A stretch of DNA of 64,000 bases from Burkholderiales bacterium (GTDB lineage Bacteria; Pseudomonadota; Gammaproteobacteria; Burkholderiales; SG8-41), in assembly GCA_043743335.1 (NCBI GenBank), contig JAYTWR010000004.1:1708-65707 (forward strand), in the 5' to 3' direction. Below, in pieces: positions 1 to 63,676 of the stretch (the stretch's first letter is position 1; the number at the start of each line of letters is the position of its first letter). The notes under the pieces are model-generated. The model searched no databases, was not told the origin of the DNA, and saw only the letters and a list, made by a program, of their open reading frames with translations. A program made the position numbers and the translations under genes.

Positions 1-166
1 CGCCGCCAGCAAACAGCATCACCCTGGCCTTGGCGTTCGCGGTGGGCAACAGCAGCACCCGTTGGGTGACGCCCGCTCGGGTAGGCACGTCCACCACCCG
101 CAGGGTTTGTGCGCTTACCAGCGAAGGAAATAAAATAAATAATAAAATCAAATAGTTACGCATCAT
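1..166 (-). CDS. secreted protein of unknown function, N-terminal part only (runs off left edge)
   Basis: ATGATG at 166-161 preceded by AAGGAA. It reads MMRNYLILLFILFPSLVSAQ/TLRVVDVP..., a typical signal peptide. It is too short for the ORF track. Codons 3-9 are a copy of the AT-rich motif. Confidence 0.4.
   Translation of the reverse strand, partial: MMRNYLILLFILFPSLVSAQTLRVVDVPTRAGVTQRVLLLPTANAKARVMLFAGG
141..159 (+). repeat. AT-rich IHF-consensus motif copy (AATAAAATCAAATAGTTAC)
   Basis: Exact WATCAANNNNTTR core (AATCAAATAGTTA) after an A-tract. It lies inside the signal-peptide codons of the minus-strand gene at 1-166. Confidence 0.7.
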
Positions 167-221
167 TCGGAGTTTCCTTCAGCGGCTGTTACAGGGCTTT
201 GGCAGCGACGCGCACGAATCG

Positions 222-1790
222 TCAGGCGCGCGCGGCGTTGGTACCGGCGATGCGGCCTGTCACAAAGCACTCGGCGATGTTGCCGCCGGACAAATACAAA
301 TGCCCGAATGCACTGCCGAGCTCGCCTGCGGCGTACAGGCGTGGTATCGGCGCGCCGTAGGCATCGATGATGCGCGATTGCGCGTCGTGTACCGGGCCGC
401 CTTGCGTGTTGGACAGCGTGGCCCACACCGGCGCGCCATAGAACGGCGGCTTGACGATGGGTGTCATGCTGGCAGGCGGGCGACCGAAGTCGGCGTCTTC
501 GCCTTTGGCGCACTGCGCGTTCCAGCGCGCGACGTTGGCTTCCAGTGCCTGCGGATCGAGACCGAGTTTTTGCGCGAGCTCGGTCAGCGTAGGGGCTTGC
601 GTCAGGATGCCATTGCCGACTTCTTGCAGATTGTCATCACTCCATTGGTAGCGCACACCTTCGTCGTTGGACGTGGCTTTGCCCAGCGGATACATACGCC
701 GGCCTTCGTCGTCACAAATCATCACGGCGGGATTGCGCGGCGCGGTTTGAGTTTCAGGGTCGAAATACTGCATCGAGCGCACGCCGGTGTCTTGCGTGTA
801 CGGCTGGTACTCGGACATAAATCGTTGCGCCCGCTGATCGAGCAGAATCCAAGCCATTTTGAGTTTGACCTGATGTTTTTCACCGGGGAACCAGTCGGGA
901 AAACGCTTCAGGCGAATCGCGTACGGGTAGCTGGGGTCGCTGTGGCGAAAGCCGTACGCGCCGTGGATCATCCACATATGCCAGAGCTGCGCGCCCAAAT
1001 CCTGCGCCATGCGAATGCCGTCGCCGGTGTTGGTGCGCGCAGCCGCATTGAGCACCGGATTGCCCTCAAGAAACTGCTGCTTAATTTCAGCGCTGCCTTC
1101 AAAGCCGCCGCAGGCGAGCACCACGCCGCGCCGCGCTTGAATATTGCGTTCGACGCCGTGGCTGCGCACGCGCACGCCCAACACCTCGCGCGTCACGGGG
1201 TCGGCAATCAGCCGCACCGCAGCGGTATTCAGGCGCACCTCGATACCGCGTCGATCCACGTTGTCGTGTACCACTTTAAACAGCTTGGGCCCGTTCGGTG
1301 CGCCGTTGGCCCACGGATACGTGTGGGCGGCATCGAAGCCGGGCACGCCGATCACCGAGGTGTGATAAAACGCCTCGGTGCCGGGCAGCGGGTAATTGGC
1401 GCTGATGCGCCGCCGGTGGTTGTCGCCGGTGGGATCAACGGCAGCCTCGCGTTGCTGGTTTTCTTCAATCGAGGTTTGCACTTGCGCGTGGTTGACTTTG
1501 GCCAACTCGCGCACATACGCCTCAAGCTCGCACATGCCGTGCGCCAGTGCGCGGTTCACGTCGTCCGGCGTGCGCCCGCCGTTGGTGGCTTTGAGATAGG
1601 CAAACGCGCCGTCGCGGTCACGCGCGCTGCGCACCGCGCCATACGAACAAATCGACAATCCGCCCGGCACGCTGGATTTTTCGAGTATCAGCGTTTTGGC
1701 CCCATGGTCGGTGGCGTTGATTGCGGCTATCGCCCCGCCATGGCCGAAGCCGGCCACGATGACATCGAAGGATTCGTCGAAGATTGGCAT
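222..1790 (-). CDS. FAD-dependent oxidoreductase (fumarate reductase/succinate dehydrogenase flavoprotein-like, FAD_binding_2)
   Basis: 522-aa ORF. N-terminal dinucleotide-binding motif DVIVAGFGHGGAIAA...LILEK; C-terminal LYAAGE..GG motif typical of this flavoprotein family. Confidence 0.85.
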   Translation of the reverse strand: MPIFDESFDVIVAGFGHGGAIAAINATDHGAKTLILEKSSVPGGLSICSYGAVRSARDRDGAFAYLKATNGGRTPDDVNRALAHGMCELEAYVRELAKVNHAQVQTSIEENQQREAAVDPTGDNHRRRISANYPLPGTEAFYHTSVIGVPGFDAAHTYPWANGAPNGPKLFKVVHDNVDRRGIEVRLNTAAVRLIADPVTREVLGVRVRSHGVERNIQARRGVVLACGGFEGSAEIKQQFLEGNPVLNAAARTNTGDGIRMAQDLGAQLWHMWMIHGAYGFRHSDPSYPYAIRLKRFPDWFPGEKHQVKLKMAWILLDQRAQRFMSEYQPYTQDTGVRSMQYFDPETQTAPRNPAVMICDDEGRRMYPLGKATSNDEGVRYQWSDDNLQEVGNGILTQAPTLTELAQKLGLDPQALEANVARWNAQCAKGEDADFGRPPASMTPIVKPPFYGAPVWATLSNTQGGPVHDAQSRIIDAYGAPIPRLYAAGELGSAFGHLYLSGGNIAECFVTGRIAGTNAARA

Positions 1791-1801
1791 ATTAAAAACA
1801 C

Positions 1802-1820
1802 TTTAAAATCAATTAGTTAT
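1802..1820 (+). repeat. AT-rich IHF-consensus motif copy (TTTAAAATCAATTAGTTAT)
   Basis: Exact AATCAATTAGTTA core. It sits in the 35-bp gap between two minus-strand genes, 11 nt upstream of ATG 1790. Confidence 0.7.
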
Positions 1821-1825
1821 AAAAA

Positions 1826-2722
1826 CTATCCGGGTGGACTCAGCGCTGCGCTGCCGGCCGCCTGAAAAATCAGTCTCCCGCCCAACGATGTCGGCAGCGT
1901 AACGCAAATGCGATCCCCCAGGGCTTGCCCGCCAACGATGGCGCGGGTGGCGGCCAAATCGCTGCTGTCGATGACGTAGCCGGCGATCCACGGTTGCGCA
2001 GGCGGGGTGGCACCCAACCACTGCTGTGAAACGGCTGGCGTGTAGAACAAGAGATAGCCACGGGCGGTATCGATGCGCCAGGCGTTGCCCGTGGGCTGTG
2101 CAGGGAGCCCGGTGAAGCGCGCGTAGCGTTGCGCGGCGGTGGCGGGGTCAGCTACGCAAATGAGCACGCCTGCCAGTGCGGTGGCGTGATTGGCGTGATG
2201 AATCCAACGGCTTTGCCATACCACTTCGGGCGTGTGGTGCTGGCAGTATTGGATACGGCCTTCGGCCATGGCGTCCGGCGGCACGCGCACGACGGTAAAG
2301 CGCGCGGTGGCCTCGCCGCTTGCAGTGCCCACTTGGCGCTGCAGCGCGACGGACGGCAGCGGGGCAAAGCCTTCACGGGTCAGGCGCGCATGATCGGCAG
2401 CGGGCGTTGCTGTGCCAAAAGCGATGAGGTGTACCCCGGTGTAGCGCGCAATGGCGTTGCGTAGCTGCTGTGCGTTGGGGGTGTCGTGCGTGGGCGTCAG
2501 AAATTCCAGATAGCCGTGTTGCAGCATGACACAGCGATTGGCCGTGCCCGCAGCCGTCAGCGGGCCGCCGGGCGTAAGCCGGTGCGACTGGGCGGACTGC
2601 GGCGTCAGGGTAAAGCCCAAATGCGTGAGTGCTGCGCTGGCGGCGCCGCTATCGGGCAGAAAGTGCGCGACATGGTCTACGGTGTGTTTGGTGGCAGTGG
2701 TGGTTTTGGGGCGGGTTGACAT
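1826..2722 (-). CDS. VOC/glyoxalase-like domain protein
   Basis: The ORF reads DHVAHFLPD...LGFTLTP...GTANRCVMLQHGYLEFL, a pattern typical of Glyoxalase_3-type proteins. I prefer ATG 2722 (MSTRPK..) over the TTG at 2743 used by the track. Confidence 0.6.
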   Translation of the reverse strand: MSTRPKTTTATKHTVDHVAHFLPDSGAASAALTHLGFTLTPQSAQSHRLTPGGPLTAAGTANRCVMLQHGYLEFLTPTHDTPNAQQLRNAIARYTGVHLIAFGTATPAADHARLTREGFAPLPSVALQRQVGTASGEATARFTVVRVPPDAMAEGRIQYCQHHTPEVVWQSRWIHHANHATALAGVLICVADPATAAQRYARFTGLPAQPTGNAWRIDTARGYLLFYTPAVSQQWLGATPPAQPWIAGYVIDSSDLAATRAIVGGQALGDRICVTLPTSLGGRLIFQAAGSAALSPPG

Positions 2723-2733
2723 GGTGCGGTGAG

Positions 2734-2752
2734 TATAAATCAATGACTTTAG
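2734..2752 (+). repeat. AT-rich motif copy, one mismatch to IHF core (TATAAATCAATGACTTTAG)
   Basis: AATCAATGACTTT. It lies in the divergent intergenic region, 11 nt upstream of the minus-strand ATG 2722. Confidence 0.5.
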
Positions 2753-3646: not shown

Positions 3647-4648
3647 TTAGTATCCCAGCTTGCGGTCGACGATATTGATGAGTTTTTTGCTGGCGAGAAA
3701 ACGTTCAAAGTTGCTGAACCAGAAGTCGAGCAGGCGCGCCATATAGCGTGGATCATCGCAACTGATGTGCGGCAGCACAAGCACGTTTGGGGTGGTCCAA
3801 AACGGCGAGTCTTGCGGCAGCGGCTCTTGGTCAAATACGTCGAGCACGGCACCCAGCAGATCGCCGCTTTGCAGCCGTTCGCGCAGCGCCGTGTAATCCA
3901 CAATCGGCGAACGCCCAATGTTAATAAAGCCCGCGCCGGGCTTTAATCGGTGAATGCGCTCGCGATGGATGAGGCCGCGAGTCTCTGGCGTAAGCGGCGC
4001 GGTGACAATCACAAAATCGGCTTTGGGCCATACGCTGTCGATACGCGCAGACGTCACCACGCGATCTGCTAGGCGGTGCGCCTTGCCGCTGCGGGTAACG
4101 GCAATCACGTTCATGCCCAGTTTTTTCGCGGCACGCCCTGCCCCTTGTCCCAGATCACCAAAGCCAATAATCACCGCCGTTTTGCCGGTGATGGGCGTCG
4201 TGAAAATGCTGCGCCAGACTTTGGCCGTCTGATTTTGCATCACTTCCGGCATACGCGCTTGCAGCATCAGCAGCGCCATCAGGCAGGATTCTTCAGCCTT
4301 GGGGCCGTGCGCGCCGCGATTATTGGTCAGCGCAATGGCTTTGGGCAGCCACGTTAGCGGCATGAGGAAATCGACGCCAGCGCTGGTGGTTTGTATCCAC
4401 TTGAGATGCGGCGCGCGGGTGCGCAAGTCGTCTCTGGGCGGTGCGGTATTGGTTAACAGAAAGTCGGCGGTTTTCAGCGCTTCGTCAAAAATGGCTTGGT
4501 CTTCGCCGGCCGTGATGCGCAGTTTTTTTGCCAGTGCGCGGTGGCGTAGCGCGGCGGCCTGCCAATCCACCAGCCGCGGCTGAAAAATCAGCGGGCGCTG
4601 CGTGGCGGATTCCAAGTGTAAATGGTAAGTAATTGATTTTATTGACAT
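3647..4648 (-). CDS. D-isomer-specific 2-hydroxyacid dehydrogenase family protein
   Basis: 333-aa ORF. NAD-binding GxGxxG motif (IIGFGDLGQGAGRAAKKLGMNV), then LPHIS.. catalytic His region. It lies 6 nt after the UbiD stop, so it is probably in the same operon. Confidence 0.85.
   Translation of the reverse strand: MSIKSITYHLHLESATQRPLIFQPRLVDWQAAALRHRALAKKLRITAGEDQAIFDEALKTADFLLTNTAPPRDDLRTRAPHLKWIQTTSAGVDFLMPLTWLPKAIALTNNRGAHGPKAEESCLMALLMLQARMPEVMQNQTAKVWRSIFTTPITGKTAVIIGFGDLGQGAGRAAKKLGMNVIAVTRSGKAHRLADRVVTSARIDSVWPKADFVIVTAPLTPETRGLIHRERIHRLKPGAGFINIGRSPIVDYTALRERLQSGDLLGAVLDVFDQEPLPQDSPFWTTPNVLVLPHISCDDPRYMARLLDFWFSNFERFLASKKLINIVDRKLGY
4625..4645 (-). repeat. AT-rich IHF-consensus motif copy (TCAATAAAATCAATTACTTAC on minus strand)
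   Basis: It follows ATG 4648 immediately and encodes residues 2-8 (SIKSITY) of the dehydrogenase. Exact AATCAATTACTTA core. Confidence 0.7.
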
Positions 4649-4654
4649 TTTATT

Positions 4655-9359: not shown

Positions 9360-9534
9360 TCTTATAATTGTGGGTTGATTTTAAAGTAACTTGTTGAAAT
9401 AAATCCAGTGAAATCAGATATTTAGCTAAGATTACTCAACTTGTCGTGGAAAAATTGTCAAATCCGGGCGAAAGCGCCCTGCACGGGCGTTACCGGTTTA
9501 CCCGGCACAGGGTGAGTGTGACATTGAATAATAT

Positions 9535-9552
9535 AATAAAAACAATTACTTA
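9535..9552 (+). repeat. AT-rich motif copy, one mismatch (AATAAAAACAATTACTTA)
   Basis: AAACAATTACTTA core, 21 nt upstream of ATG 9574. Confidence 0.5.
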
Positions 9553-9573
9553 TGGTAATACCCGGAGACGGGC

Positions 9574-11890: not shown

Positions 11891-11900
11891 TTTAAAAAAG

Positions 11901-11920
11901 TCAATAAAATCAATTACTTA
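11901..11920 (+). repeat. AT-rich IHF-consensus motif copy (TCAATAAAATCAATTACTTA)
   Basis: Exact core, 11 nt after the hydrolase stop and upstream of the htpX promoter region. Confidence 0.7.
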
Positions 11921-11947
11921 AGGTCGTTTGGCAAAGGCGCGGCACTA

Positions 11948-17775: not shown

Positions 17776-17952
17776 AGCTTGAATACCGAGTTGCGTAAAG
17801 TGGTGGCGCAGCCCGAACTGCAGCGCCAACTGGCGGAGCAGGGTTACGAGCCGTTGAGCGGCACTGCGGAATCATTCGACGCCTACATTCGTTCTGAAAT
17901 TGCCCAATGGACGCGCGTGGTTAAGGCCGCGAGAATTAACGTATCTAATTGA
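17776..17952 (+). pseudogene. C-terminal fragment (~55 aa) of a Bug/TctC-family binding protein
   Basis: SLNTELRKVVAQPELQRQLAEQGYEPLSGTAESFDAYIRSEIAQWTRVVKAARI aligns with the last ~55 residues of the intact Bug paralogs in this window. No N-terminal part is present upstream. Confidence 0.6.
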
Positions 17953-17961
17953 TTTTATTGA
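17941..17961 (-). repeat. AT-rich motif copy, one mismatch (minus strand TCAATAAAATCAATTAGATAC)
   Basis: It overlaps the stop of the Bug fragment and lies 42 nt downstream of the kinase stop. Confidence 0.55.
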
Positions 17962-18002
17962 GAGTTACGGTTATTTCGCCGTTCGCGGCAGCGCGATGCC
18001 GC

Positions 18003-21731: not shown

Positions 21732-21756
21732 TGGGGATAGGTGGCTTATAAAAAAA

Positions 21757-21777
21757 TCAATAAAATCAATTAGTTAC
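21757..21777 (+). repeat. AT-rich IHF-consensus motif copy (TCAATAAAATCAATTAGTTAC, consensus)
   Basis: Exact consensus, 25 bp from MITE copy 1 and 38 bp downstream of the cupin stop. Confidence 0.75.
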
Positions 21778-23146: not shown

Positions 23147-24115
23147 TCAGTAGCCGAAGGTTACTGTGACCGGCAGGTGATCTGAACCGAGATCGGGGCC
23201 GATTTCGCGTTTCACCAGCGGCAGTGACGGATGGGCAAAGCTGTGGTCGATGGCCAGCCCCAGATTGGCGTTGTCGAAGGTCACCGGCCAAGTGTGCGCA
23301 AAGCGGCGCGGCGTGCGGGCATCGCGCAGGCCGCTGTCGGCCACGAATTTGTCGAAATGGGGCGACCATGGCGTCAGGTTAAAGTCACCCACGACGACCG
23401 GTGTTGCCTGCGGTTGCCGAGCCACCCTTTGCGCGATGTAATCCAGTTTGGTGTTGCGATCCCGCGCCATGTTCCCGGAGACCGGCGGCGGCGCGTGCAG
23501 CGCGTAGAGCGCCAGCGGTTCGCTGCGGTTCGGCAGCTTGATGAGCGCTTCAATGTGTGGATACAGCCGTAGCGGTTTGAACGACGCTTCTCCGCCCGCC
23601 AGCGGAAACCGGCTGGCCAGCGCTATGCCGAACGGGGAATCTTCTAAGTATTTGATTTGATGGGGAAAAATATCTTTTATCTCGTCGAGTATGGGGTCGA
23701 ATTGCGTCGAGGCTTCGAGTAGCACCACCACGTCGATGAGCTTGGCGCGGCGGCGTAAATACGAACTGACGCGGCCCGGCTGTTCGTGGTGCAAGCCCAC
23801 GTTAAAATGAAACACCGTGATGGGGTGTGACACGGCAGCGGCGGGTGGCTGTTCCTGCAGCCACATCTGCGCGACGGGATACCCGTTCCATAACGCCAGC
23901 GCACTGGCCAACGCGGCCCAGCGCCATACGCGCAACGCCGCCAAGCCCAACACACACAGCAGCGCGAAGACGGTGTAATGCGGCCTGAAGTGGCTGAACA
24001 GTTCAGCGAACCAATGCAGCGAAGCCAGCGCCGCGCAGCCGGTGACGAGCGCCACCAGCAGGGTCAACGCGATGAAGCGCTTGGCGATACGTTGTTTGTA
24101 TTCTCTTGGGGCCAC
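23147..24115 (-). CDS. membrane-anchored endonuclease/exonuclease/phosphatase (EEP) family protein
   Basis: The C-terminal 320 aa of the 567-aa track ORF carry TM helices plus EEP motifs (GDFNLTPWSP, GSDHLPV). I propose the GTG start at 24115. The upstream 245 'residues' overlap pcp antisense and do not look coding. Confidence 0.7.
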   Translation of the reverse strand: MAPREYKQRIAKRFIALTLLVALVTGCAALASLHWFAELFSHFRPHYTVFALLCVLGLAALRVWRWAALASALALWNGYPVAQMWLQEQPPAAAVSHPITVFHFNVGLHHEQPGRVSSYLRRRAKLIDVVVLLEASTQFDPILDEIKDIFPHQIKYLEDSPFGIALASRFPLAGGEASFKPLRLYPHIEALIKLPNRSEPLALYALHAPPPVSGNMARDRNTKLDYIAQRVARQPQATPVVVGDFNLTPWSPHFDKFVADSGLRDARTPRRFAHTWPVTFDNANLGLAIDHSFAHPSLPLVKREIGPDLGSDHLPVTVTFGY

Positions 24116-31303: not shown

Positions 31304-31471
31304 ATCGGCTGCTGACGCTGGATGCGAGCCGGTATGCGACAGATTTTCCAAAGCTGACGTTGTTACCGGCGTCACAGCGTTTTGCGTTCTGTGCGAATCA
31401 CCTGTCCAGAAATCACGCGAGATCGCGTGGGCGTGCTGTGTGATAAGCAGGCGGTGACTTTTCATAACCAT

Positions 31472-32446: not shown

Positions 32447-32455
32447 GGTTCTGCC

Positions 32456-32483
32456 TAAATAGTTGTTTAAAAACAACATATTA
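32456..32483 (+). repeat. AT-rich motif-related palindromic copy (TAAATAGTTGTTTAAAAACAACATATTA)
   Basis: Homologous to 61465-61498 (CTAAATAATTGTTTAAAATCAATTAGTTA). It contains the GTTGTTT/AAACAAC inverted repeat and starts 10 nt after the Bug stop. Confidence 0.45.
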
Positions 32484-32751
32484 GAGTGAACGTCCTGCAA
32501 TGTTTGCCGTAGACCGCTTCGCTGTCCGCTGTCAGCCCTCAACTCGTGTATGATTCATGCACAGGACATCAGCACCGCTTCATCCGGTTTGCGGTTGCGT
32601 CCTGTTCGAGGCGAATATCTGCTGTGGCACTCAGGGCTTAATCATAAAAGCCCAGCCCGGCGTTCCCCGAATCTTAAACCCCACGTGGTATCGGCCTGAA
32701 CCGGTTCTTGCGGCGTTTGCCGCAGCAGGTTGATCGCAGGGAGAATTTTTT

Positions 32752-37246: not shown

Positions 37247-37259
37247 AACAAATAGTTAC
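37241..37259 (+). repeat. AT-rich motif copy, one mismatch (AATTAAAACAAATAGTTAC)
   Basis: It contains the TAA stop (37244-37246) of the CMD gene and ends 1 nt before ATG 37261 of the Bug gene. Confidence 0.55.
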
Positions 37260-37260
37260 G

Positions 37261-39515: not shown

Positions 39516-39638
39516 CCATTTTGCGTATGCCAGCAGTCAAATACAGCGGCGTGCCATGCGTCATTTTGGCGAGCATCATGCGTATTAGTTTAGCGGAAAA
39601 GCGGTGGTACAATATGGCTTTACAGAGTCTGAAAACCG

Positions 39639-42600
39639 ATGATTCTGCGTCTCCGGGGGCGGCGAGCCCTCTCTGATTTTCGCCTTGCCAAACTTTCCCA
39701 GTCGCTACCGGCGTCGTTTGCTGGGCTGACATTGCATGCTGAGTTTTGGCATTTTGTTGAACTCACGAGTGCCGTGTCTGCCCTGTCCGCCGCCGAGCTT
39801 GAGCGGCTCGAACGCATTCTGACCTATGGTCCGGTTGGCCCGGTCGGCGCTGTGGATACCGCGCAAGGCGAAGTGCTGCTGGTGACACCGCGGCCCGGTA
39901 CGATTTCACCGTGGTCTTCCAAGGCAACCGACATCGCGCGGCATTGCGGGCTGGAAGCCGTGCGCCGCATTGAGCGCGGCACGGTGTTCCGGGTGAGCGG
40001 CGTTGATTTCGGTGAAGCACGCCCGGCATTGTTGCCGCTGATACACGACCGCATGACCGAGGTGGTGTTCGCGTCGCTGGAAGATGCCGACAAGCTGTTT
40101 CAACGCTTCGAACCCAAGCCGCTGGCGACCGTGGATATTCTCGGCGGCGGTGTGCAAGCCTTGGCGCGAGCGAATCGTGACATGGGCCTAGCGTTGTCGG
40201 AAGACGAAATCAGCTATCTCGTTGAGCACTTCACGCGCATGGCGCGCAATCCCACCGACGTTGAGCTGATGATGTTCGCACAGGCCAATTCGGAACATTG
40301 CCGCCACAAGATTTTCAACGCCGATTGGGTGATCGACGGGCAGATCAAAGACATTTCCTTGTTCGGCATGATACGCACTACGCACGCCAAGCATCCGCAA
40401 GGCACGGTGGTGGCGTATTCGGACAATTCGTCGATTATCGAGGGCGCGCGTGTCGCGCGGTTTTATCCCGGCACGGATGGCGCGTATCGATTCGTTGAGG
40501 ACGACACACACATTTTGATGAAGGTGGAAACCCACAATCACCCGACGGCGATTGCGCCCTATCCGGGCGCGGCCACCGGCTCCGGCGGTGAAATTCGTGA
40601 CGAAGGTGCGACCGGGCGCGGCTCCAAACCCAAGGCCGGGCTGACAGGGTTTAGTGTGTCGAATCTGCGCATCCCCGGCGCGCTGCAACCGTGGGAGCGC
40701 GCATCCGAGTCATACGGCAAGCCCGGACGCATCGCGTCGGCCTTGCAAATCATGCTCGACGGACCCATCGGCGGCGCGGCGTTTAACAACGAATTCGGGC
40801 GTCCCAATCTCACCGGTTACTTTCGCACGTATGAGCAGTCGGTGGCCGGCGAAATGCGTGGCTATCACAAGCCGATCATGATGGCGGGCGGCGTTGGCAA
40901 CATCGCCGCACGCCATGCCTTCAAAGCCGAGCCGCAGGCGGGCGCGTTGCTGATTCAGTTGGGCGGGCCGGGCATGTTGATTGGCCTGGGCGGCGGTGCT
41001 GCGTCGAGCATGGATACCGGTGCGAATCAAGAAGATTTAGATTTTGATTCCGTGCAGCGCGGCAATGCGGAAATTCAGCGTCGCGCGCAGGAAGTGATCG
41101 ATCGGTGCTGCGCGCTGGCCGACGCCAATCCGATTTTGTCGATACACGATGTCGGCGCAGGCGGTATTTCAAATGCGTTGCCGGAAATGGTGCATCAGGC
41201 CGGACGTGGCGGACGGTTTAATTTGCGTAAAGTGCCCAGTGAAGAGCCGGGTATGTCGCCGTTGCAAATCTGGTGCAACGAGTCGCAGGAGCGCTACGTG
41301 ATGGCGATAGCGCCGGATTCGCTGGCGGCCTTTGATGCGATTTGCGCGCGTGAACGTTGCCCGTACGCGGTGGTGGGCGAGGCGACGGACGACGGGCGCT
41401 TGACCGTGCACGATTCCGTGTTCAACAACAACGCGGTGGACATGGATTTGTCGGTGCTGCTTGGCAAGCCGCCGAAAATGACGCGGCGCGTGGCGCGTAT
41501 CGCAAGTGTTATTCAAGTATTTGATTTTAAAGGAATAAATTTACGCGAAGCCGCATACCGCGTGTTGCGCATACCGTCGGTGGCGGACAAAACCTTTTTG
41601 ATCAGCATCGGGGACCGCAGCGTCGGCGGCATGACGGCGCGTGACCAGATGGTTGGTCCGTGGCAGGTGCCGGTGGCGGATGTGGCGGTGACGCTGATGG
41701 GTTTTAACACCGTGCGCGGCGAAGCCTTTGCAATGGGCGAGCGCACGCCGCTGGCGGTGATTAACGCGGTAGCGTCGGGCCGCATGGCGGTGGGCGAGGC
41801 GATTACCAATATCGCTGCGGCACCGATTGCGAAAATCGGCGACATCAAACTCTCGGCCAACTGGATGGCGGCAGCGGGCCACGGCGGTGAAGATGCGGCC
41901 TTGTTCGACACCGTGCACGCGGTGGCGATGGCATTGTGCCCGCAGTTGGGCATTAGCATCCCGGTGGGCAAAGATTCGTTGTCCATGAAAACCGCGTGGT
42001 CGGATGGCGGGCAGAAAAAAGAAGTGATCGCGCCGCTGTCGCTGATTGTGTCGGCGTTTGCCCCGGTGTTAGACGCTCGTAACACCCTGACGCCACAACT
42101 GCGCACCGATTGCGGCGAAACGGTGTTGCTGTTAATCGACTTGGCCGTCGGCAAACAGCGTTTGGGTGGTTCGGCCTTGGCGCAGGCTTTTAGCGCGACG
42201 GGCGCGGTGACGCCCGATGTGGAGTCGCCTGCAGCCATAGTTGAATTTATTCAACAAAAACAATTGGTTACAGATGCCGGCCAAATTTTGGCTTACCACG
42301 ACCGCTCAGATGGCGGCTTGTTTGCCACTGCGTGTGAAATGATGTTCGCGGGGCGTACCGGCGTGACTTTACAGTTGCCCGCAGGCGCAGCGCTAATCGA
42401 GACTTTGTTTAACGAAGAGTTGGGCGTGGTGCTGCAAGTGCGCGCAGGCGACGAGGCGGCGGTGTGTGGCGCGTTCGGCATGGCTTGCCGTCGCATCGGC
42501 GTGTTGAATGCCGATGCAATGTTGCGCATTGAAGCAGGCGGCCACGAAGTATTTTGTGAATCGCGTGTCGAGCTGCACCGCGCTTGGTCCGACACCACTT

Positions 42601-43610: not shown

Positions 43611-43633
43611 TGTGGCTAACGGCTTTTTCCAAT

Positions 43634-43664
43634 AAAAAACGGCGGAACAAATACGCCGTTTTTA
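43634..43664. terminator. bidirectional rho-independent terminator (purL / ppiC convergent)
   Basis: AAAAACGGCG-GAACAAATA-CGCCGTTTTT. Confidence 0.75.
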
Positions 43665-43667
43665 TTG

Positions 43668-43686
43668 TTAAAAATCAATGACTTAC
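43668..43686 (+). repeat. AT-rich IHF-consensus motif copy (TTAAAAATCAATGACTTAC)
   Basis: Exact core AATCAATGACTTA. It overlaps the stop codon (43683-43685) of the minus-strand PPIase gene. Confidence 0.6.
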
Positions 43687-45888: not shown

Positions 45889-47313
45889 TTACAGCACTTT
45901 GCCCGGATTCATGATGCCCTGCGGATCGAGCGCGCGCTTTACGGTGCGCATGAGATCGATTTCCACCGGGTCTTTGTAGCGCACCAGTTCTTCGACCTTG
46001 GCGATGCCGATGCCGTGTTCAGCGCTGAAGCTGCCTTTGTATTGCTTGACGATATCGTAAATCACCGTGGTGACATCGTTGGCCGCGCGCGCGGCGGCAT
46101 CCGTGCGCAGTCGGCCTTCGACGTAAGCGTTGTAGTGCAGATTGCCGTCACCCAAATGACCGAAGCAAATAATTTTGCTGTCCTTGAAACGTTTTTCCAG
46201 CGCGGCCTGGCCATCGCGAATAAAGGCGGGAATCTCCCCGACGGCCACTGCGATATCGTGCCGATAGAGCATGCCGCTTTCGTTGCGCGCGGCTTCGGGT
46301 ATGGATTCACGGATGCGCCACAGCGCCTGTGATTGGGCGTGGCTTTCCGCCAACGTTGCATCGATAACTAATTGATTATCAATGGCTTTTTCTAGGACGC
46401 CTTCGAGTGTGTCGCGCAGGGTGGTGCCGGGCGACGAATCACCCAACTCGGTCAGCACGTACCATTCGTAAGGCTTGTCCAGCGGATCGCGCGTGCCGGG
46501 GATGTGCTTCATCACCAGCTCAAGGCAAGCGCGCGAGATTAACTCAAACGCGCTGATGCGATCACCGAAATGCTGACGCAACAGCGAAAACAAACTTAGC
46601 GCGGCGTCAGGGGAGGGCACGGCCAGCCAAGTGGTCGCCGTGGCGCTCGGCTTGGGAAACAGCTTCAATACCGCGCCAGTGATAATGCCGAGCGTGCCCT
46701 CGGCACCGATGAACAAATGCTTCAGGTCGTAGCCGGTGTTGTCTTTGCGCAGCGCACGCAGGCCGTTCCAAATGCGGCCATCCGGCAGCACGGCTTCGAT
46801 GCCGAGCACCAGATCGCGCGTGTTGCCGTAACGCAGCACATTCACGCCGCCGGCGTTGGTCGATAAATTGCCGCCGATCTGGCAACTGCCTTCAGCGCCC
46901 AGCGACAGCGGAAACAGTCGATCGGCTGCCGCCGCCGCTTGTTGAATATTTGCCAGCACGCAGCCGGCCTCCACCGTCATGGTGTTATTGAGCGCATCGA
47001 CATGGCGAATGCGGTTCATGCGCCCCAACGCGATCACCACGGGATTCAGTTTCGGGTCGGGCACGGACGCGCCACACATGCCGGTGTTGCCGCCTTGCGG
47101 CACCAGCGGCGTTTGGGTTTCAGCGCAGATTTTGACAATGGCCGCAACTTGCTCGACGTTGGCCGGTCGCACCACCGCAGCGGCGGCACCCGCATAAATG
47201 CCGCGCCAGTCGTTGACGTAGGGCTCAAGTTCCGCAGGCTCCGTAAAAATACCTTGCGGGCCGACGGCTGCGCCGAGGCGACTGATAGTGGCGGTGCGGG
47301 AGACGGGAGGCAT
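45889..47313 (-). CDS. FAD-linked oxidase (GlcD / D-2-hydroxyacid dehydrogenase-like)
   Basis: 474-aa ORF. FAD_binding_4 (PQGGNTGMCGASVP) plus a C-terminal FAD-oxidase_C (SAEHGIG..K). Confidence 0.85.
   Translation of the reverse strand: MPPVSRTATISRLGAAVGPQGIFTEPAELEPYVNDWRGIYAGAAAAVVRPANVEQVAAIVKICAETQTPLVPQGGNTGMCGASVPDPKLNPVVIALGRMNRIRHVDALNNTMTVEAGCVLANIQQAAAAADRLFPLSLGAEGSCQIGGNLSTNAGGVNVLRYGNTRDLVLGIEAVLPDGRIWNGLRALRKDNTGYDLKHLFIGAEGTLGIITGAVLKLFPKPSATATTWLAVPSPDAALSLFSLLRQHFGDRISAFELISRACLELVMKHIPGTRDPLDKPYEWYVLTELGDSSPGTTLRDTLEGVLEKAIDNQLVIDATLAESHAQSQALWRIRESIPEAARNESGMLYRHDIAVAVGEIPAFIRDGQAALEKRFKDSKIICFGHLGDGNLHYNAYVEGRLRTDAAARAANDVTTVIYDIVKQYKGSFSAEHGIGIAKVEELVRYKDPVEIDLMRTVKRALDPQGIMNPGKVL
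46364..46385 (-). repeat. AT-rich IHF-consensus motif copy inside the GlcD-like gene
   Basis: The minus strand reads CCATTGATAATCAATTAGTTAT and is translated AIDNQLVI. Exact AATCAATTAGTTA core. Confidence 0.65.
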
Positions 47314-53212: not shown

Positions 53213-53378
53213 GGTTCTCCTCGGGTTGCGCCGTAATCCGCGCGCAGGTGTGTGGCTAAATGCTACGCGCGGTCAGGGAATTCGGCAAACTCACTGCGCA
53301 CCTCACTGCGCACCTCACCGAATCATGCAACGTGCGTGGCAGGTGCTGCTGATGGCCAGTGATGATGCTTAAAAATAC

Positions 53379-53399
53379 TCAATAAAATCAATTAGTTAC
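53379..53399 (+). repeat. AT-rich IHF-consensus motif copy (TCAATAAAATCAATTAGTTAC, consensus)
   Basis: Exact consensus between two minus-strand Bug genes. Confidence 0.75.
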
Positions 53400-53557: not shown

Positions 53558-54523
53558 CTACTCGGCACGCATACCCGTAGCTTTGACCACGAGGCTCCAC
53601 TTCTTGATTTCGGCGCGCACATAGTCGGTGAAGCGCTCCGGCGTCATGAAAAAAATGTTCGCGCCCAGCGCATGAAAGCGCTCTTTAACCTCGGGCGAGT
53701 TCAGCACTTTGTCGATTTCACGGCTCAAGCGCGCGACGATGTCTTTCGGCGCGCCCGCTGGCATCACCATGCCGTACCAAATGGTGCTTTCATAACCGGG
53801 CAGGCCCGCCTCGGCGATGGTCGGCACGTCGGGCATGCTGGGGGAGCGCTCCGCCGATGTGACGCCCAAGGGGCGCAGTCTGCCGGCTTTCAGATGAGGA
53901 GACACCGAAACGATAGTGGCGAATATCAACGCGACTTGGCCGCTCGCCACATCTACCATGGCGGGGCCGCCGCCTTTGTAGGGGATATGGGTCATTTTTA
54001 TTTTGGCGAGGTAGCTGAACAGCTCGGCGGTGAAATGATTGGCGCTGCCGAGTCCGGCTGACGCATAGGTTAGTTTGCCGCCTTCACTGCCGGCCAGCGC
54101 AATCAGCTCGGTGACGGATTTCGCCGGCACGGCGGGATTCACCACCAGCACATTAGGCATCGACACAAAATTGGCGACATAGGTGAAATCGCGCATCGAG
54201 TCATACGGCAGATTCTTGTAGGTGCTGGGATTAACCGCCATGGTGCTGGTAGCCGCCAGCATCATGGTGTACCCGTCGGCTGGCGTGCGCGCGATCATGC
54301 CCGCAGCAGCCGAGCCGGACGCCGCCGGGCGATTGTCGATCACGATGGGTTGCTTCAGGGCTTCACTTAGGCGCGTGCAAACAATGCGCGACACCACATC
54401 CGACGCGCCGCCGGGGGCAAAGCCGAGCACAAAGCGTATGGGTTTGCTGGGGTATGCCTGGGCTGCGGCATGCCCGGTAACGCAGACCATGCACCCCATA
54501 AACAGTTTGCGTAGAAGTGTCAT
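53558..54523 (-). CDS. Bug/TctC-family substrate-binding protein
   Basis: MTLLRKLFMGCMVCVTGHAAAQAYPSKPIRFVLGFAPGGASDVVSR.. The ATG is formed by the last bases of a motif copy, and no SD is visible. Confidence 0.9.
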   Translation of the reverse strand: MTLLRKLFMGCMVCVTGHAAAQAYPSKPIRFVLGFAPGGASDVVSRIVCTRLSEALKQPIVIDNRPAASGSAAAGMIARTPADGYTMMLAATSTMAVNPSTYKNLPYDSMRDFTYVANFVSMPNVLVVNPAVPAKSVTELIALAGSEGGKLTYASAGLGSANHFTAELFSYLAKIKMTHIPYKGGGPAMVDVASGQVALIFATIVSVSPHLKAGRLRPLGVTSAERSPSMPDVPTIAEAGLPGYESTIWYGMVMPAGAPKDIVARLSREIDKVLNSPEVKERFHALGANIFFMTPERFTDYVRAEIKKWSLVVKATGMRAE

Positions 54524-54542
54524 AACTAATTGATTTTATTGA
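54521..54542 (-). repeat. AT-rich IHF-consensus motif copy fused to a start codon
   Basis: Minus strand TCAATAAAATCAATTAGTTATG, where the final ATG is the Bug start at 54523. Confidence 0.75.
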
Positions 54543-54979
54543 GTAATTTATGCATCACTTTGCCAGCCCCAAATCGCGCAACAGCTTGCCTGTGACTTCG
54601 CGCTCGGCATCCAGCTCGCGCTTGAGCTGCGCAGAATCTGCGTAGGCGTCTGCCCAGCCTTGTTGCGCCAGCACTTTTTTCCAAGCGGCGCGTGGAGTAC
54701 GCAGCGTGTGTGGTAGTCACCGCCAGAAGCAGCGCGATCACGGTGAACCATTGCAGACGTGGCATGCGTGAATCTCGCTTTCGAGGCACGGGTCGTTGGG
54801 GGCAGGGGTGGGGCGTCACCGGCATGCTACGCCAATTCCATTTAACCGTGCAGCGCGAGCTGCATCGTGCAGTAGTGCTGCTGGGTTCAAAGCAGTATAT
54901 TGGGTGCGTGCGTGCGGGCCTGCTGTCGGGGCGGCGTGCAGCGGCGGGTTTTCAATGGCAGGCTTATCGTGGGGATCGT

Positions 54980-58277: not shown

Positions 58278-58292
58278 TAGTTACTAAAATAT

Positions 58293-58313
58293 TCAATAAA
58301 ATCAATTAGTTAC
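58293..58313 (+). repeat. AT-rich IHF-consensus motif copy (consensus) 3 nt before a Bug start
   Basis: TCAATAAAATCAATTAGTTAC-ATC-ATG(58317), preceded by a half copy AATAATAGTTAC (58273-58284). Confidence 0.75.
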
Positions 58314-58316
58314 ATC

Positions 58317-61468: not shown

Positions 61469-61479
61469 CTAAATAATTG

Positions 61480-61498
61480 TTTAAAATCAATTAGTTAT
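61480..61498 (+). repeat. AT-rich IHF-consensus motif copy (TTTAAAATCAATTAGTTAT) within a larger imperfect palindrome
   Basis: TAACTAAATAATTG-TTTAAAAT-CAATTAGTTA spans 61466-61497 between convergent stop codons. Confidence 0.7.
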
Positions 61499-61510
61499 GT
61501 AATTATCTGA

Positions 61511-62473
61511 TTAGTCTTCGCGCAACCCGGCGCTGGCGATGACTTTACTGAGGCTGCCCATCTCAGCGTTCACCACGGCGGCAAAGCGCGCGGGCGTGCT
61601 GCCGACCGCTTCCATGCCTGCCGCGAGAAATTTTTCTTTCACCTGCGGTTTGTTCAGCGCGCGCACGGCGTCTTGATTCAGTTTCGTGACCAGCGCGGCA
61701 GGTGTTTTGACCGGCGCGAACACGCCAAACAGTATGGTCGATTCGTAGCCGGGCACGCCGGACGCGGCCACAGTGGGCAAGCCCGGCAGCAGTACCGAAG
61801 GCTCGGCGCTGGTGACGGCAATTGCACGCAGGCGACCGGTTTTGACATGCGGCAGCACGGGTGCGGGTGCCGCGAACATCACCTGCGCTTGCCCGCCGAT
61901 GAGTGCGGTGACCGCTGGCCCGACGCCACGATACGTCACCCGCACTAGATTCACCTTGGCCATGGATTTGAACAACTCCGCCGCCACGTGGGTGGAGCCA
62001 CCGGTGGCGGACGACGCGTAATTGAGTTCGCCCGGCCGGGCGCGCGCCAGCGCAATGAGTTCAGGCACGCTCTTCACCGGCAGCGAAGGATGCACCAGCA
62101 CCACGTCGGGCGAGCTGGCGGCCAGCGTCACCGGCGCAAAATCTTTCACCGGATCGTACGGCACGTTTTTACGAAACAGCGGCAGCAGCCACATCGGGTT
62201 GCCATACAAAATCAGCGTGTAGCCATCGGGCGTGGCGCGCGCCACCAACTCTGAAGCAATGGCACCGCTGGCTCCGCCACGGTTATCCACGATCACTTGT
62301 TGCCCCCAGTCGGCAGTCAACTCTTGCGCCAGCAGGCGCGCGACAAAATCACTGCCGCTACCGGCCTCGGTGGTCACCAAGCGCACCGGGCGCGAGGGAA
62401 AATTTTGGCTGTGCGCGGGCAGGGTGCTTGTCAGCGTAAGGGCGAGCAGGCAGTGCGTGGCGGTGAAATTCAT
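61511..62473 (-). CDS. Bug/TctC-family substrate-binding protein
   Basis: I chose ATG 62473 (MNFTATHCLLALTLTSTLPAHSQNFPSRPVRLV..). The 80-aa extension in the track is non-coding-like. Confidence 0.9.
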   Translation of the reverse strand: MNFTATHCLLALTLTSTLPAHSQNFPSRPVRLVTTEAGSGSDFVARLLAQELTADWGQQVIVDNRGGASGAIASELVARATPDGYTLILYGNPMWLLPLFRKNVPYDPVKDFAPVTLAASSPDVVLVHPSLPVKSVPELIALARARPGELNYASSATGGSTHVAAELFKSMAKVNLVRVTYRGVGPAVTALIGGQAQVMFAAPAPVLPHVKTGRLRAIAVTSAEPSVLLPGLPTVAASGVPGYESTILFGVFAPVKTPAALVTKLNQDAVRALNKPQVKEKFLAAGMEAVGSTPARFAAVVNAEMGSLSKVIASAGLRED

Positions 62474-62595
62474 GATGAGCTGGAAGTGTCGGGGCGTGGG
62501 GTGCAGCGTGGGGTGCAGCGTATGGTAGTCTAAATGTGACGCAGCCCACATCAAACCGGCTGCCGGGCATCGATCACAACAAGGGTAAAAACGGC

Positions 62596-63576
62596 ATGAG
62601 CACTCGTTGGCAAAAGTGGTTCGCGACAGTGGCGTTGAGCGTGTGCGCCATGCCACTGGGTTGGGCGCAAGGCGACAAATATCCCTCGCGCCCGGTGCGC
62701 GTGGTCGTGCCATCGACGCCAGGCGGTGGGCTGGATGTGATGGCGCGTATTCTCACGCCCCGTTTAACCGAGAAATGGGGCGCGCAAGTGGTGATCGATA
62801 ATCGCGCTGGGGCGGGTGGGATTATCGGCACGGAAATCGTGGCGAAGGCCGTGCCAGACGCCCACACGCTGCTGCTGGTGACCACGGGCTTTGTCACAAA
62901 TCCTTATTTAATCAACAAGTTACCGTACAAAACGCCGCAGGATTTTGAACCCATCACCATCGTCGGCATGACCCCGGTGGTGCTGGTTGCGCATTCGTCT
63001 GTGAACGTTCGCAACATCAAAGACATGCTCGCGCTCGCCAAAGAGCGGCCCGGGCAACTGACGTTTGGTTCGTCCGGCACCGGCAGCAGCGGGCATTTGT
63101 CGATGATGTTGATGCAGCGCGTGGCGGGCATCCAATTTGTTCACGTGCCGTATAAGGGGGCGGGCGCGTCGACGGCGGCGATTGTTGGCGGCGAAGTGCA
63201 ACTGCTGTTCACCGCGCCGGGCTCAGCGAACGCGCATGTGAAGGCTGGACGCTTGCGCGCACTGGCGGTCACCAGCATCAAGCGCGTGGGCATCATGCCC
63301 GACGTGCCCAGTGTGGTTGAGGTCGGCTTGACGGATTGCGCGGTGGACGGCTGGTACGGCTTGCTCGCGCCAGCGGGCACGTCCAAAGCGCTGATAGACC
63401 GCATCTATGCGGATGTGTCGGCGATCATCAAACAGCCCGAAACCGCAGCGCGGCTGCAAGGTGCGGGCTTTGAAATTGATGGGCGGTCACCAGCACAGTT
63501 CAAACAATATCTGGCGGATGAAATGAAAAAGTGGAGTGGGGTGATTAAAGAGGCCGGTATACGGATGGAGCCGTGA
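62596..63576 (+). CDS. Bug/TctC-family substrate-binding protein
   Basis: I chose ATG 62596 (MSTRWQKWFATVALSVCAMPLGWAQGDKYPSRPVRVVVP..). Confidence 0.9.
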   Translation: MSTRWQKWFATVALSVCAMPLGWAQGDKYPSRPVRVVVPSTPGGGLDVMARILTPRLTEKWGAQVVIDNRAGAGGIIGTEIVAKAVPDAHTLLLVTTGFVTNPYLINKLPYKTPQDFEPITIVGMTPVVLVAHSSVNVRNIKDMLALAKERPGQLTFGSSGTGSSGHLSMMLMQRVAGIQFVHVPYKGAGASTAAIVGGEVQLLFTAPGSANAHVKAGRLRALAVTSIKRVGIMPDVPSVVEVGLTDCAVDGWYGLLAPAGTSKALIDRIYADVSAIIKQPETAARLQGAGFEIDGRSPAQFKQYLADEMKKWSGVIKEAGIRMEP

Positions 63577-63657
63577 TGTGGCGGTAGATTCGACCGCCAC
63601 CCATCGCATTTTCCGCGCGTCGCCCAAGGCCGAGAATTTCACTATAAGAGAAATCCA

Positions 63658-63676
63658 TTTAAAATCAATTAGTTAT
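63658..63676 (+). repeat. AT-rich IHF-consensus motif copy (TTTAAAATCAATTAGTTAT)
   Basis: Exact core, between convergent Bug and cytochrome c gene ends. Confidence 0.7.

Follow-up and report, generated by a model that had tools for sequence, protein, structure and literature searches.

An AT-rich word recurring at gene borders of a Burkholderiales genome as a candidate array of IHF-type architectural sites

What is the short AT-rich word that recurs throughout the 64-kb window analysed here (the whole stretch of contig DNA), and what keeps it there? Its copies stand out as AT-rich islands within a background of 60% GC, and their recurrence, first reported by a sequence-only reading of this DNA, is real, with observed counts far above those of shuffled sequences. 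The word AATCAATTAGTTA is matched 13 times with at most one mismatch versus 0.00 times in shuffles, the IHF consensus WATCAANNNNTTR has 17 exact matches versus 0.91 expected (shuffle maximum, 4), and a 40-nt PWM finds 20 copies at a threshold of at least 25 bits, with zero matches on three shuffles even at a laxer threshold of 12 bits. All 15 perfect-core copies listed in the sequence-only reading carry WATCAANNNNTTR exactly where they were placed, the three identical 21-mers (21757, 53379 and 58293) were recovered, and so were the six copies described as having one core mismatch, with cores at 2738 (AATCAATGACTTT), 9540 (AAACAATTACTTA), 17942 on the minus strand (AATCAATTAGATA), 32471 (AAACAACATATTA), 37246 (AAACAAATAGTTA) and 42258 (AAACAATTGGTTA). 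Two further exact matches to WATCAANNNNTTR (23645-23657 on the minus and 62910-62922 on the plus strand) are weak, intragenic and devoid of an A-tract. Tested against a proper null, the copies in the window show no significant evenness of spacing (P=0.08).

Copies and weaker matches of the recurrent word in the 64-kb window
Coordinates	Strand	PWM score (bits)	Type or core	Context and relatives
130..159	+	49.8	core AATCAAATAGTTA (146)	overlaps signal-peptide-like first codons (MMRNYLILLFILFP) of a minus-strand ORF running past the left edge of the window
1791..1820	+	53.8	TT-step version	occupies 35-bp spacer of two minus-strand genes (FAD-binding protein, glyoxalase-like protein)
2722..2751	+	<12	doubtful, AATCAATGACTTT, listed earlier	3 mismatches; TTR unmet, no A-tract
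4625..4654	-	48.5	copy (4626)	UbiD-like gene stop on one side; on the other 2-hydroxyacid dehydrogenase gene, whose likely first codons (MSIKSITY) it overlaps
9524..9553	+	45.8	AAACAATTACTTA	divergent spacer, 21 bp 5' of acyltransferase gene
11892..11921	+	47.3	copy	directly past hydrolase gene stop
17941..17970	-	43.4	AATCAATTAGATA	past histidine-kinase gene stop
21748..21777	+	56.8	identical 21-mer	
23644..23673	-	23.9	weak consensus match, possibly chance	in Exo_endo_phos gene; no clear A-tract
31464..31493	-	38.6	AATCATATGGTTA	~20 bp 5' of probable TctC gene start
32455..32484	+	15.1	degenerate, AAACAACATATTA	5' of DEAD-box helicase gene; positional orthologs L296:2523, L297:4042
37230..37259	+	43.7	AAACAAATAGTTA	holds CMD-family gene stop codon, ends 2 bp 5' of TctC start codon; L296 and L297 lack this TctC gene
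38746..38775	-		in-gene	nnrD, codons ..CTA TTA AAT CAA ATA GTT ACA..; kept in L296, L297, L298, absent from L299
41513..41542	-		in-gene	purL, this genome only; no other 10-codon stretch of the gene is as AT3-rich (P=0.005); protein as long as orthologs
42242..42271	+		in-gene, AAACAATTGGTTAC	purL; orthologous to AAACAAATACTTAC in L296, L297, L299, L300 (encoded peptide FIQxKQILT, clade-specific)
43657..43686	+		AATCAATGACTTA, found by PWM	between convergent purL and PpiC-type genes, directly past terminator-like hairpin; ortholog L297:13929
46364..46393	-		in-gene, perfect 13-mer	FAD-linked oxidase, codons AAT CAA TTA GTT; kept in L296, L298, L300, absent from L299
50803..50832	+	41.3	copy	past stop of TctC gene fragment
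53370..53399	+	50.3	identical 21-mer	flanked by two TctC genes; positional ortholog L080:3496
54522..54551	-	53.1	copy	last base is A of TctC start codon; directly upstream lies the end of a C-terminal TctC remnant
58284..58313	+	56.6	identical 21-mer	occupies 39-bp spacer of CoA-transferase and TctC genes; ortholog L080:12123
61469..61498	+	53.5	copy	occupies 42-bp spacer of convergent MFS and TctC genes; ortholog L080:19881; a weaker inverted copy overlaps
62894..62923	+	19.7	weak consensus match, probably chance	in TctC gene; no A-tract
63647..63676	+	42.8	copy	convergent genes on both sides

The reading that we favour, at a probability of roughly 0.6, is that the word constitutes a selected array of predicted IHF-type architectural sites, each copy being a complete and near-optimal predicted site for an IHF-type (DNABII) heterodimer. 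The conserved unit exceeds the ~20 bp first assigned to it: the site is ~34-38 bp long, with a conserved block that, counted from the core start, extends from about -17 to +21. Within this block, all four canonical IHF-site elements are present and spaced as in lambda H', namely an A-tract at -14..-9, an AA/TT step at -5/-4 (exactly 9 bp 5' of the core AA step), a WATCAA core (AAWCAA in relatives) and a TTA that follows the core after four unconstrained spacer bases (NNNN). Canonical IHF sites comprise the same four elements over an extent of 34 bp (PMC1874591), and the IHF consensus is also quoted in PMC8942017. The 9-bp offset holds AA or TT in 20 of 21 window copies and in 29 of 34 copies of relatives, versus a share of 0-33% at neighbouring offsets. 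The A-tract, the step 9 bp upstream and the footprint-sized block thus lend further weight to the proposed kinship with IHF sites. Moreover, two apparent sub-families of the word, TCAATAAAATCAA and TTTAAAATCAA, are the AA and TT versions of one kink step rather than lineages of a copied element, so that the common descent of the copies considered earlier is not supported. Since the kink carries either AA or TT and NNNN is free, a structural step, not a word, would be what is conserved.

These features also bear on the possibility that the TCAATAAAAT half serves as a nucleation site for H-NS-like silencers. This half agrees with TCGATAAATT at 8 of 10 positions, a comparison drawn in the sequence-only reading, and the copies are AT-rich islands in GC-rich DNA. 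However, relatives have not kept the left half TCAATAAA as a word but only the AA/TT step and a general A/T richness, the sites are located in housekeeping operons and within purL instead of foreign AT-rich islands, and an AT-rich block of only ~38 bp is too short for spreading. Nucleation by H-NS is hence barely credible, and the resemblance first noted is not supported as a reading of the site.

A search of related genomes for the word, suggested beforehand, yielded eight positional orthologs in genomes ~75-80% identical at the nucleotide level. Identity in non-coding orthologous pairs, a comparison biased by a PWM that was built from the window copies, amounts to 0.89 for AAWCAA plus TTA, 0.62 for the A-tract, 0.43 for NNNN and 0.30 for the outer flanks; constraint between orthologous copies thus appears limited to predicted IHF-contact positions. 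Copies located well inside Pfam-supported genes (38747, 41514, 42258 and 46365, in nnrD, purL twice and a FAD-linked oxidase) have the highest AT3 content of any stretch in their own genes (P=0.005, 0.036 and 0.022), an enrichment that was not significant for the two weak matches at 23644..23673 and 62894..62923. Since protein length is unaltered, they arose by substitution and not by insertion, and L299 has GC-rich codons where the nnrD and oxidase copies would be. Synonymous-codon identity reaches 0.79 versus 0.55 for the purL copy (p=4e-7), 0.76 versus 0.49 for nnrD (p=4e-6) and 0.71 versus 0.54 for the oxidase (p=0.003). Together, conserved positions and synonymous-site conservation support the strong selection that had been listed among several explanations.

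Alternatively, the word might be a selfish micro-element or gene-conversion repeat, short and non-autonomous, with IHF as host factor for its mobility. Three identical 21-mers among many near-identical copies would fit such an element, Logan contigs of two runs stop exactly at copy edges (58314 and 53372), and gene-content differences, in the form of extra TctC genes, adjoin copies. Against this, a transposase is absent, no inverted or direct repeats were found flanking the conserved block, in agreement with the initial observation that TIR and TSD are lacking, in-gene copies are equal-length substitutions, positions are conserved across genomes of 75-80% identity with NNNN free, and the apparent sub-families are merely step versions. 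Mobility of this kind is therefore very unlikely, and the earlier view that the word is not an ordinary MITE is upheld. Judged by its orthologous positions, free NNNN and equal-length in-gene substitutions, the site is not mobile.

The claimed preference for gene boundaries is borne out by about 16 of 22 copies; five or six lie inside real genes. The orientation of the copies goes in both directions independently of transcription, and tandem, convergent and divergent spacers are all represented. In several cases (37246, 54523 and 58300), the start codon follows 0-5 nt after the copy end, with the copy in place of a Shine-Dalgarno sequence, which might point to an RNA-level role, i.e. an AU-rich translation leader lacking a Shine-Dalgarno sequence, a site for RNase E or a signal for intercistronic processing. 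Random orientation, the presence of copies within genes as well as between convergent ones, and the lack of any hairpin within the conserved block or Rfam match for the site speak against this role. In addition, the AA/TT alternation is strand-symmetric and therefore a DNA property. An action at the RNA level is accordingly highly improbable, and the mRNA-leader or translation element proposed among the candidate roles is not supported.

Density is a further aspect to be explained. The window and seven related loci hold about one site per 3-4 kb, versus roughly one per 120 kb in other betaproteobacteria, i.e. a roughly 30-fold lower density. This high density is clade-specific, belonging to freshwater Burkholderiales, and it is unusual; the excess calls for a clade-specific cause beyond ordinary IHF biology. 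The relatives' core is mostly AAACAA rather than canonical AATCAA, and the window copies are more uniform than binding should need (NNNN is TTAG in 8 of 17); like the excess in density, both observations count against the IHF reading. Density and core preference alike would suit another clade-specific DNA-binding protein of IHF-like specificity, such as an additional paralog of the DNABII family or a protein domesticated from a phage or transposon, which, instead of housekeeping IHF, would account for the clade-limited amplification. Yet no candidate protein was seen, canonical IHF fully accounts for the motif geometry, and the exact word occurs sporadically in many other Proteobacteria too, all of which makes this explanation improbable. 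The exact 20-mer is found at at least 77 loci from many proteobacterial classes with non-conserved flanks. The word also lies immediately 3' of tRNA genes (L002, L019, L069 and the viral contig L269) and in an HNH-terminase (cos-like) region of a phage-plasmid. Such tRNA-adjoining and cos-like occurrences are places where IHF sites are expected.

As an array of IHF-type sites, the word would thus be maintained genome-wide at about one copy per 3 kb by selection, not transposition, in the freshwater Burkholderiales clade. By analogy to the known IHF-H' complex, two beta-ribbon prolines would intercalate at both AA/TT steps, the protein body would clamp the narrow minor groove of the A-tract on one side and read WATCAA..TTR on the other, and the DNA would be bent into a U-turn. 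Sharp bends fixed at gene borders, and within long genes where required, could then act as architectural or boundary elements, possibly as supercoil-diffusion barriers, transcription roadblocks or nucleoid-folding points, and would be neither promoters nor terminators nor RNA signals. New sites would be born in place through point substitution, with old ones decaying. Neither ihfA nor ihfB is present within the 64-kb window.

Finally, the array may be compared with known systems of abundant short words. USS and DUS accumulate via biased uptake and recombination, and the same molecular drive could be proposed for a word favoured by the DNA-uptake machinery of this clade, the IHF likeness then reflecting a shared demand for sharply bendable DNA or coincidence. 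The in-gene copies here are created by substitution where the protein is variable and are conserved in related genomes, which is how USS behave in Pasteurellaceae; also the confinement of high density to one clade, the occurrence in both orientations and the unusual uniformity of the word within this genome would be in line with an uptake signal. We nevertheless regard it as unlikely, because the presence of all four IHF elements at exact H' spacing would be an improbable coincidence, the free NNNN and AA/TT alternation point to a conserved structural step instead of a word, and the same 20-mer is found in unrelated classes and beside tRNA-linked att-like sites. It is the IHF site H' of lambda whose element spacing the window copies match.

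The window consists of ordinary chromosomal DNA of ~60% GC with metabolic and housekeeping gene content, including purL, nnrD, rdgC, msrB and a DEAD-box helicase gene, and close protein relatives of its genes are found in MAGs of freshwater and other environmental Burkholderiales, whereas proteins identical to its own are encoded only on short Logan contigs. This DNA contains 17 exact matches to the IHF consensus WATCAANNNNTTR (0.91 expected), the 13-mer AATCAATTAGTTA is present 13 times at no more than one mismatch and is absent from every shuffle, and the 21-mer gives three exact copies and nine at up to three mismatches. Scoring was based on a 40-nt weight matrix trained on 15 intergenic window copies (the 38-mer version of the site reads GCTTAAAAATACTCAATAAAATCAATTAGTTACAGTG). 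This matrix returns 20 sites of at least 25 bits in the 64 kb, corresponding to one per 3.2 kb, and gave no hit in three shuffles even at the laxer threshold of 12 bits. All 21 coordinates proposed by the sequence-only reading were confirmed in the sequence. Its claim that the copies lie mostly on gene borders applies to about 16 of 22 copies, but not to copies 38747, 41514, 42258 and 46365, which are located deep within Pfam-supported genes. Copies occupy 15 of the 50 scored intergenic spacers, without preference for tandem, convergent or divergent ones, and copies 146 and 4626 additionally overlap gene starts. Copies are oriented at random with respect to the genes beside them, and a strand bias with replication (14 plus versus 8 minus) is not significant. 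Inter-copy spacing (CV 0.59) is regular when compared with uniform points (P=0.006), but not significantly so when intergenic spacers are picked at random (P=0.08), and regular spacing was hence rejected as a property of the array.

Conservation and AT enrichment are limited to positions -17 to +21, counted from the first A of the core AATCAA, i.e. to ~38 bp. This block comprises an A-tract at -14 to -9, visible as A-rich columns in the copies of the window as well as in those of its relatives, a dinucleotide at -5/-4, the core AAWCAA and, following four variable bases, TTA(Y), of which TTA is near-invariant. The dinucleotide precedes the core's own AA step by exactly 9 bp. In the window copies it is AA in 11/21 and TT in 9/21 cases (together 20/21), in the relatives' copies AA in 17/34 and TT in 12/34 (together 29/34), while AA and TT reach a share of only 0-33% at neighbouring offsets. 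As AA and TT alternate at this position, the conserved feature is a strand-symmetric base step and not a base; hence, the apparent sub-families TCAATAAAATCAA and TTTAAAATCAA represent the AA and TT versions of one step. The third core position differs between the window (AATCAA) and its relatives (mostly AAACAA), an A/T swap that a minor-groove reader should tolerate. Within the window the word is fairly uniform, with TTAG as NNNN spacer in 8/17 copies; in the relatives' copies NNNN is free and AA alternates with TT.

A canonical IHF site covers 34 bp and contains WATCAA, a TTR element four bp further 3', an A-tract four to six bases long in its 5' half and two base pairs, most commonly AA, located 9 bp apart at the points of proline intercalation (PMC1874591). 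All four elements are found in the window copies with correct spacing, and the extent of the block agrees with ~34 bp. The H' site of lambda attP, GGCCAAAAAAGCATTGCTTATCAATTTGTTGCACC in the IHF-H' crystal structure, carries its A-tract at -14 to -9 and a TT step at -5/-4; A-tract and kink step occupy identical positions in H' and in the window site. The sequence-only reading had also considered an H-NS nucleation motif (TCGATAAATT) and an element acting at the RNA level. The former is not supported, as relatives preserve nothing of the left half but its AA/TT step and a richness in A/T, and neither is the latter, since the window contains no Rfam match and the site folds no better than shuffled sequences. 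On sequence and evolutionary evidence only, computation strongly supports the copies as candidate IHF-type binding sites.

The evolutionary part of this evidence comes from seven related loci (L080, L085 and L296-L300), which were picked by protein similarity and not by motif, and which share 76-88% amino-acid and 75-81% nucleotide identity with the window in common genes. A search of related genomes, as suggested along with the initial description of the word, revealed the site to be dense there as well, with 34 sites of at least 25 bits in 151 kb, or one per 4.4 kb. In contrast, 80 purL-neighbourhood loci of other betaproteobacteria contain only 8 such sites in 975 kb (one per 122 kb), and locus L083 has none in 21 kb. 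Eight window copies have positional orthologs in the relatives: upstream of the DEAD-box helicase gene, in nnrD, both in and after purL, in the FAD-linked oxidase gene, after the MFS gene, and before as well as after a TctC gene. Among non-coding orthologous pairs, which were located with the window-trained matrix so that identities have to be read with this in mind, identity amounts to 0.89 for AAWCAA plus TTA, 0.62 for the A-tract, 0.43 for the NNNN spacer and 0.30 for the outer flanks. Identity differs sharply by position class, and constraint thus tracks the IHF contact map.

The proteins encoded by genes with internal copies align to their orthologs without any change in length, meaning that these copies represent equal-length substitutions and not insertions, and the motif stretch forms the most AT3-rich 10 codons of the gene in purL (P=0.005), nnrD (P=0.036) and the oxidase gene (P=0.022). 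At positions encoding the same residue, synonymous-codon identity is 0.79 within the motif versus 0.55 in the rest of purL (p=4e-7), 0.76 versus 0.49 in nnrD (p=4e-6) and 0.71 versus 0.54 in the FAD-linked oxidase gene (p=0.003), the pairs behind these p values being phylogenetically non-independent. In purL copy 42258, the codons AAA CAA ATA CTT AC(G/A) following TTT ATT CAA are common to four relatives, and ATA and CTT are kept although both are expected to be rare in such GC-rich genomes. The codons of this motif, AAACAAATACTTAC, encode the clade-specific peptide FIQxKQILT, where outgroups have FFxxIQQLN. In locus L299 both the nnrD and the oxidase copy are missing, with GC-rich codons and different residues in their place, L298 lacks the purL copy, and copy 41514 is an extra one in the purL gene of the window that arose through ~15 substitutions over 36 nt. 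This pattern of presence and absence indicates that substitution both creates and removes sites where they stand. As a separate observation, the space available to the nnrD/nnrE (YjeF) gene limits its product to ~434 residues or fewer, compared with 488-521 in relatives, and only model positions 99-169 of its N-terminal YjeF_N epimerase domain are matched; this domain appears to be truncated in the window's genome.

The sites are functional in the sense of purifying selection and are not transposable. The absence of terminal inverted repeats and target-site duplications, already remarked on from the sequence, was confirmed by systematic scans of the copies, which gave chance-level matches at best; a TAGTTAC direct repeat flanking copy 58278 is not general among the copies. 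Together with the in-gene copies made by substitution and the conserved intergenic positions, this led to the rejection of a MITE or IS remnant, including the Correia type. A promoter was rejected likewise, because there is no steady -35/-10 spacing in or after the motif, a sigma-70 scan remained at chance level and copies also lie between convergent genes, and so was a terminator, as the site has no hairpin.

Several local features of the window deserve mention and are compiled in the table. Copies are enriched next to genes of the TctC/Bug family, being present in 9/16 adjacent spacers versus ~8/35 others (odds ratio ~4, hand count). The window has a different set of TctC genes from L080, L296 and L297, and a copy adjoins part of these indels. 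An integron-like cassette boundary was considered for TctC and rejected, since orientation to the gene is inconsistent and a copy is found at only 2/4 TctC indels relative to L080. Two TctC remnants suggest decay of duplicated Bug genes. Several genes, three TctC genes among them, begin 0-5 nt after a site and lack a Shine-Dalgarno sequence; the orthologous spacer of L080 between CoA-transferase and TctC genes has a normal GGAG and no site. The surroundings of copy 50797 look homologous to a stretch of L296 (AAAAGCCTT..AAAACAAT) on the opposite strand, just past the end of collinearity, and an inversion or rearrangement relative to L296 may have its endpoint at this site. Logan contigs from independent runs stop exactly at the outer edge of copies, while another one, L294, crosses three copies unbroken. 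Such contig ends could reflect site 30-mers repeated elsewhere in the genome or a strain-specific arrangement at the sites.

Coordinates of local features in the window (positions in other loci are marked as such)
Feature	Position	Strand	Observation
TctC/Bug family	31382-63576		Nine genes or fragments
Starts of TctC genes	37246-37263; 54521-54535; 58300-58319		Gene begins 0-5 nt after site
nnrD/nnrE (YjeF)	38334-39638		Contains copy 38747
FAD-linked oxidase gene			Contains copy 46365
Hairpin	43627-43656		Terminator-like (AAAAAACGGCG..CGCCGTTTTT), immediately upstream of copy 43673
Hairpin and copy in L297	~13905-13935 (L297)		Conserved together, as at copy 43673
TctC remnant	50842-51186	-	C-terminal fragment, Pfam positions 165-272 only
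Counterpart of copy 50797	21107 (L296)		Opposite strand
End of contig L295	53372		Outer edge of a copy
TctC remnant	~54549-54770	-	Short C-terminal tail (..ELDAEREVTGKLLRDLGLAK and stop), just upstream of next TctC gene
Ends of contigs L078 and L079	58314		Outer edge of a copy
Overlapping inverted copies	61461-61500		Two copies (TTAACTAAATAATTG..CAATTAGTTAT), weak palindrome filling 42-bp convergent-gene spacer

GTDB genomes contain the exact 20-mer TCAATAAAATCAATTAGTTA at no fewer than 77 loci. Among the matches listed, none of which is the source of the window, hosts comprise beta-, gamma-, alpha- and deltaproteobacteria plus a few others, and the flanks are not conserved except for the A-tract. 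Some Burkholderiales MAGs carry additional copies within 8 kb of the 20-mer. In two loci (L002, L019) the word lies directly 3' of a tRNA gene, and in L069 and viral contig L269 a sequence resembling a tRNA 3' end is located just 5' of it; tRNA 3' ends are the expected place of integrase arm-proximal IHF sites. A BLAST search of a 37-mer against plasmids and phages gave short, weak matches only, one of which is situated on a plasmid between HNH endonuclease and terminase genes (a cos-like region) and another beside a mobilization region. Viral contigs contain at least 120 occurrences of TCAATAAAATCAANNNNTTA, in which NNNN is free. In scaffold5 of Aliikangiella marina (L026, L065), the 20-mer is embedded in a longer repeat that is present twice, ~3 kb apart, its flanks being identical over >100 bp. 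Exact 20-mers also occupy orthologous intergenic positions with diverged flanks in two alphaproteobacterial (L015/L050) and two Burkholderiales loci (L038/L039). The matches in low-GC Ignavibacteria (L003, L071) are coding: they specify SIKSISY close to the beginning of a small ORF, the N-terminus of which may resemble a Phd/YefM-type antitoxin; they are chance matches outside the site family.

Concerning the function of the array, the best inference would be an architectural or boundary role, in which the sites impose fixed U-turns that separate transcription units and in some cases lie inside them. Such a role would parallel that of BIMEs, which have been suggested as barriers to supercoil diffusion (PMC6907758). 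The IHF reading, however, leaves the clade-restricted density and the uniformity of the window's word unexplained. One possible alternative is that a clade-specific DNABII-like protein stands behind the array. As to IHF itself, the 64-kb window contains no DNABII gene (ihfA/ihfB). For the wider reading, namely that this freshwater Burkholderiales clade maintains a selected, positionally conserved, genome-wide lattice of near-optimal candidate IHF sites, serving either as an architectural or insulator counterpart or as an uptake or recombination signal acting via IHF-type bending, we would tentatively assign a probability of roughly 0.3. With ~1 site per 3 kb, such a lattice would, provided that the window is typical, comprise on the order of a thousand sites in each genome. 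If true, selection on it overrides codon usage and even alters protein sequence (FFxxIQQLN to FIQxKQILT in purL), providing a clean case of a DNA-level signal that does so. The clade would then offer a natural experiment on what IHF sites do in the chromosome when they belong neither to promoters nor to recombination sites, the RIP elements of E. coli included. As the sites are near-consensus, recognisable in 60% GC, dense, conserved in position and constrained even inside essential genes, they would permit a direct test of fixed IHF bends as borders of supercoiling or transcription domains. Moreover, the sites would account for AT-rich islands at gene borders, gene starts without Shine-Dalgarno sequence and perhaps also for breaks in the assemblies of such genomes. 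Literature searches with the exact 13-mer and 10-mer words gave nothing relevant, and keyword searches did not turn up an account of a comparable array for Burkholderiales.

Compared with known systems, the window copies are, unlike sites of the lambda H' type, not tied to recombination, replication or a sigma-54 promoter complex. They further differ from canonical IHF sites in number (a typical window would imply hundreds to thousands in each genome), in their location at gene borders as well as in genes, and in the preference of the window's relatives for AAACAA. The RIP or BIME-1 elements of E. coli are dispersed IHF sites between REP palindromes, and the window density is roughly ten-fold above that of RIP. 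Common to both are scattered extragenic sites of IHF type, often at the 3' ends of transcription units, and a suspected topological role. Nevertheless, RIP/BIME-1 was rejected as an identity, because the window copies have neither flanking inverted REP palindromes nor a stable hairpin and are also present in coding sequence. The Correia repeat-enclosed elements of Neisseria are IHF-binding MITEs (PMC2649163) and resemble the window site as abundant intergenic repeats with an IHF site that sometimes abut start codons. Their length of 100-150 bp, inverted repeats, TA duplications and insertion polymorphism, however, have no counterpart here.

Uptake signal sequences of Pasteurellaceae (USS) and Neisseriaceae (DUS) occur at kb-scale spacing in both orientations, are clade-specific and include copies made by substitution in tolerant coding parts. 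The window site is likewise of kb-scale spacing, found in both orientations and clade-restricted, its coding copies are made by substitution and its positions are kept among relatives, all of which makes a drive resembling that of uptake signals a possible explanation of the array. In contrast to USS and DUS, the conserved parts of the window site appear to be structural (AA/TT step, free 4-bp spacer) instead of a fixed word, and the window's word is also present in many unrelated Proteobacteria; to our knowledge, it has no link to competence. For IHF occupancy in the 4.6 Mb of E. coli, ChIP-seq revealed ~1,000 bound regions; the motif occurs ~3,000 times, with <10% of motifs upstream of operons (PMC3333857). 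The density of the window sites is of the same order of magnitude, but unlike the degenerate E. coli sites they are near-consensus, form the main AT-rich islands in 60% GC and are conserved in position between species. While IHF sites themselves are known, what appears to be new is their putative occurrence as dispersed IHF-type sites without a REP or MITE scaffold, dense and embedded in genes.
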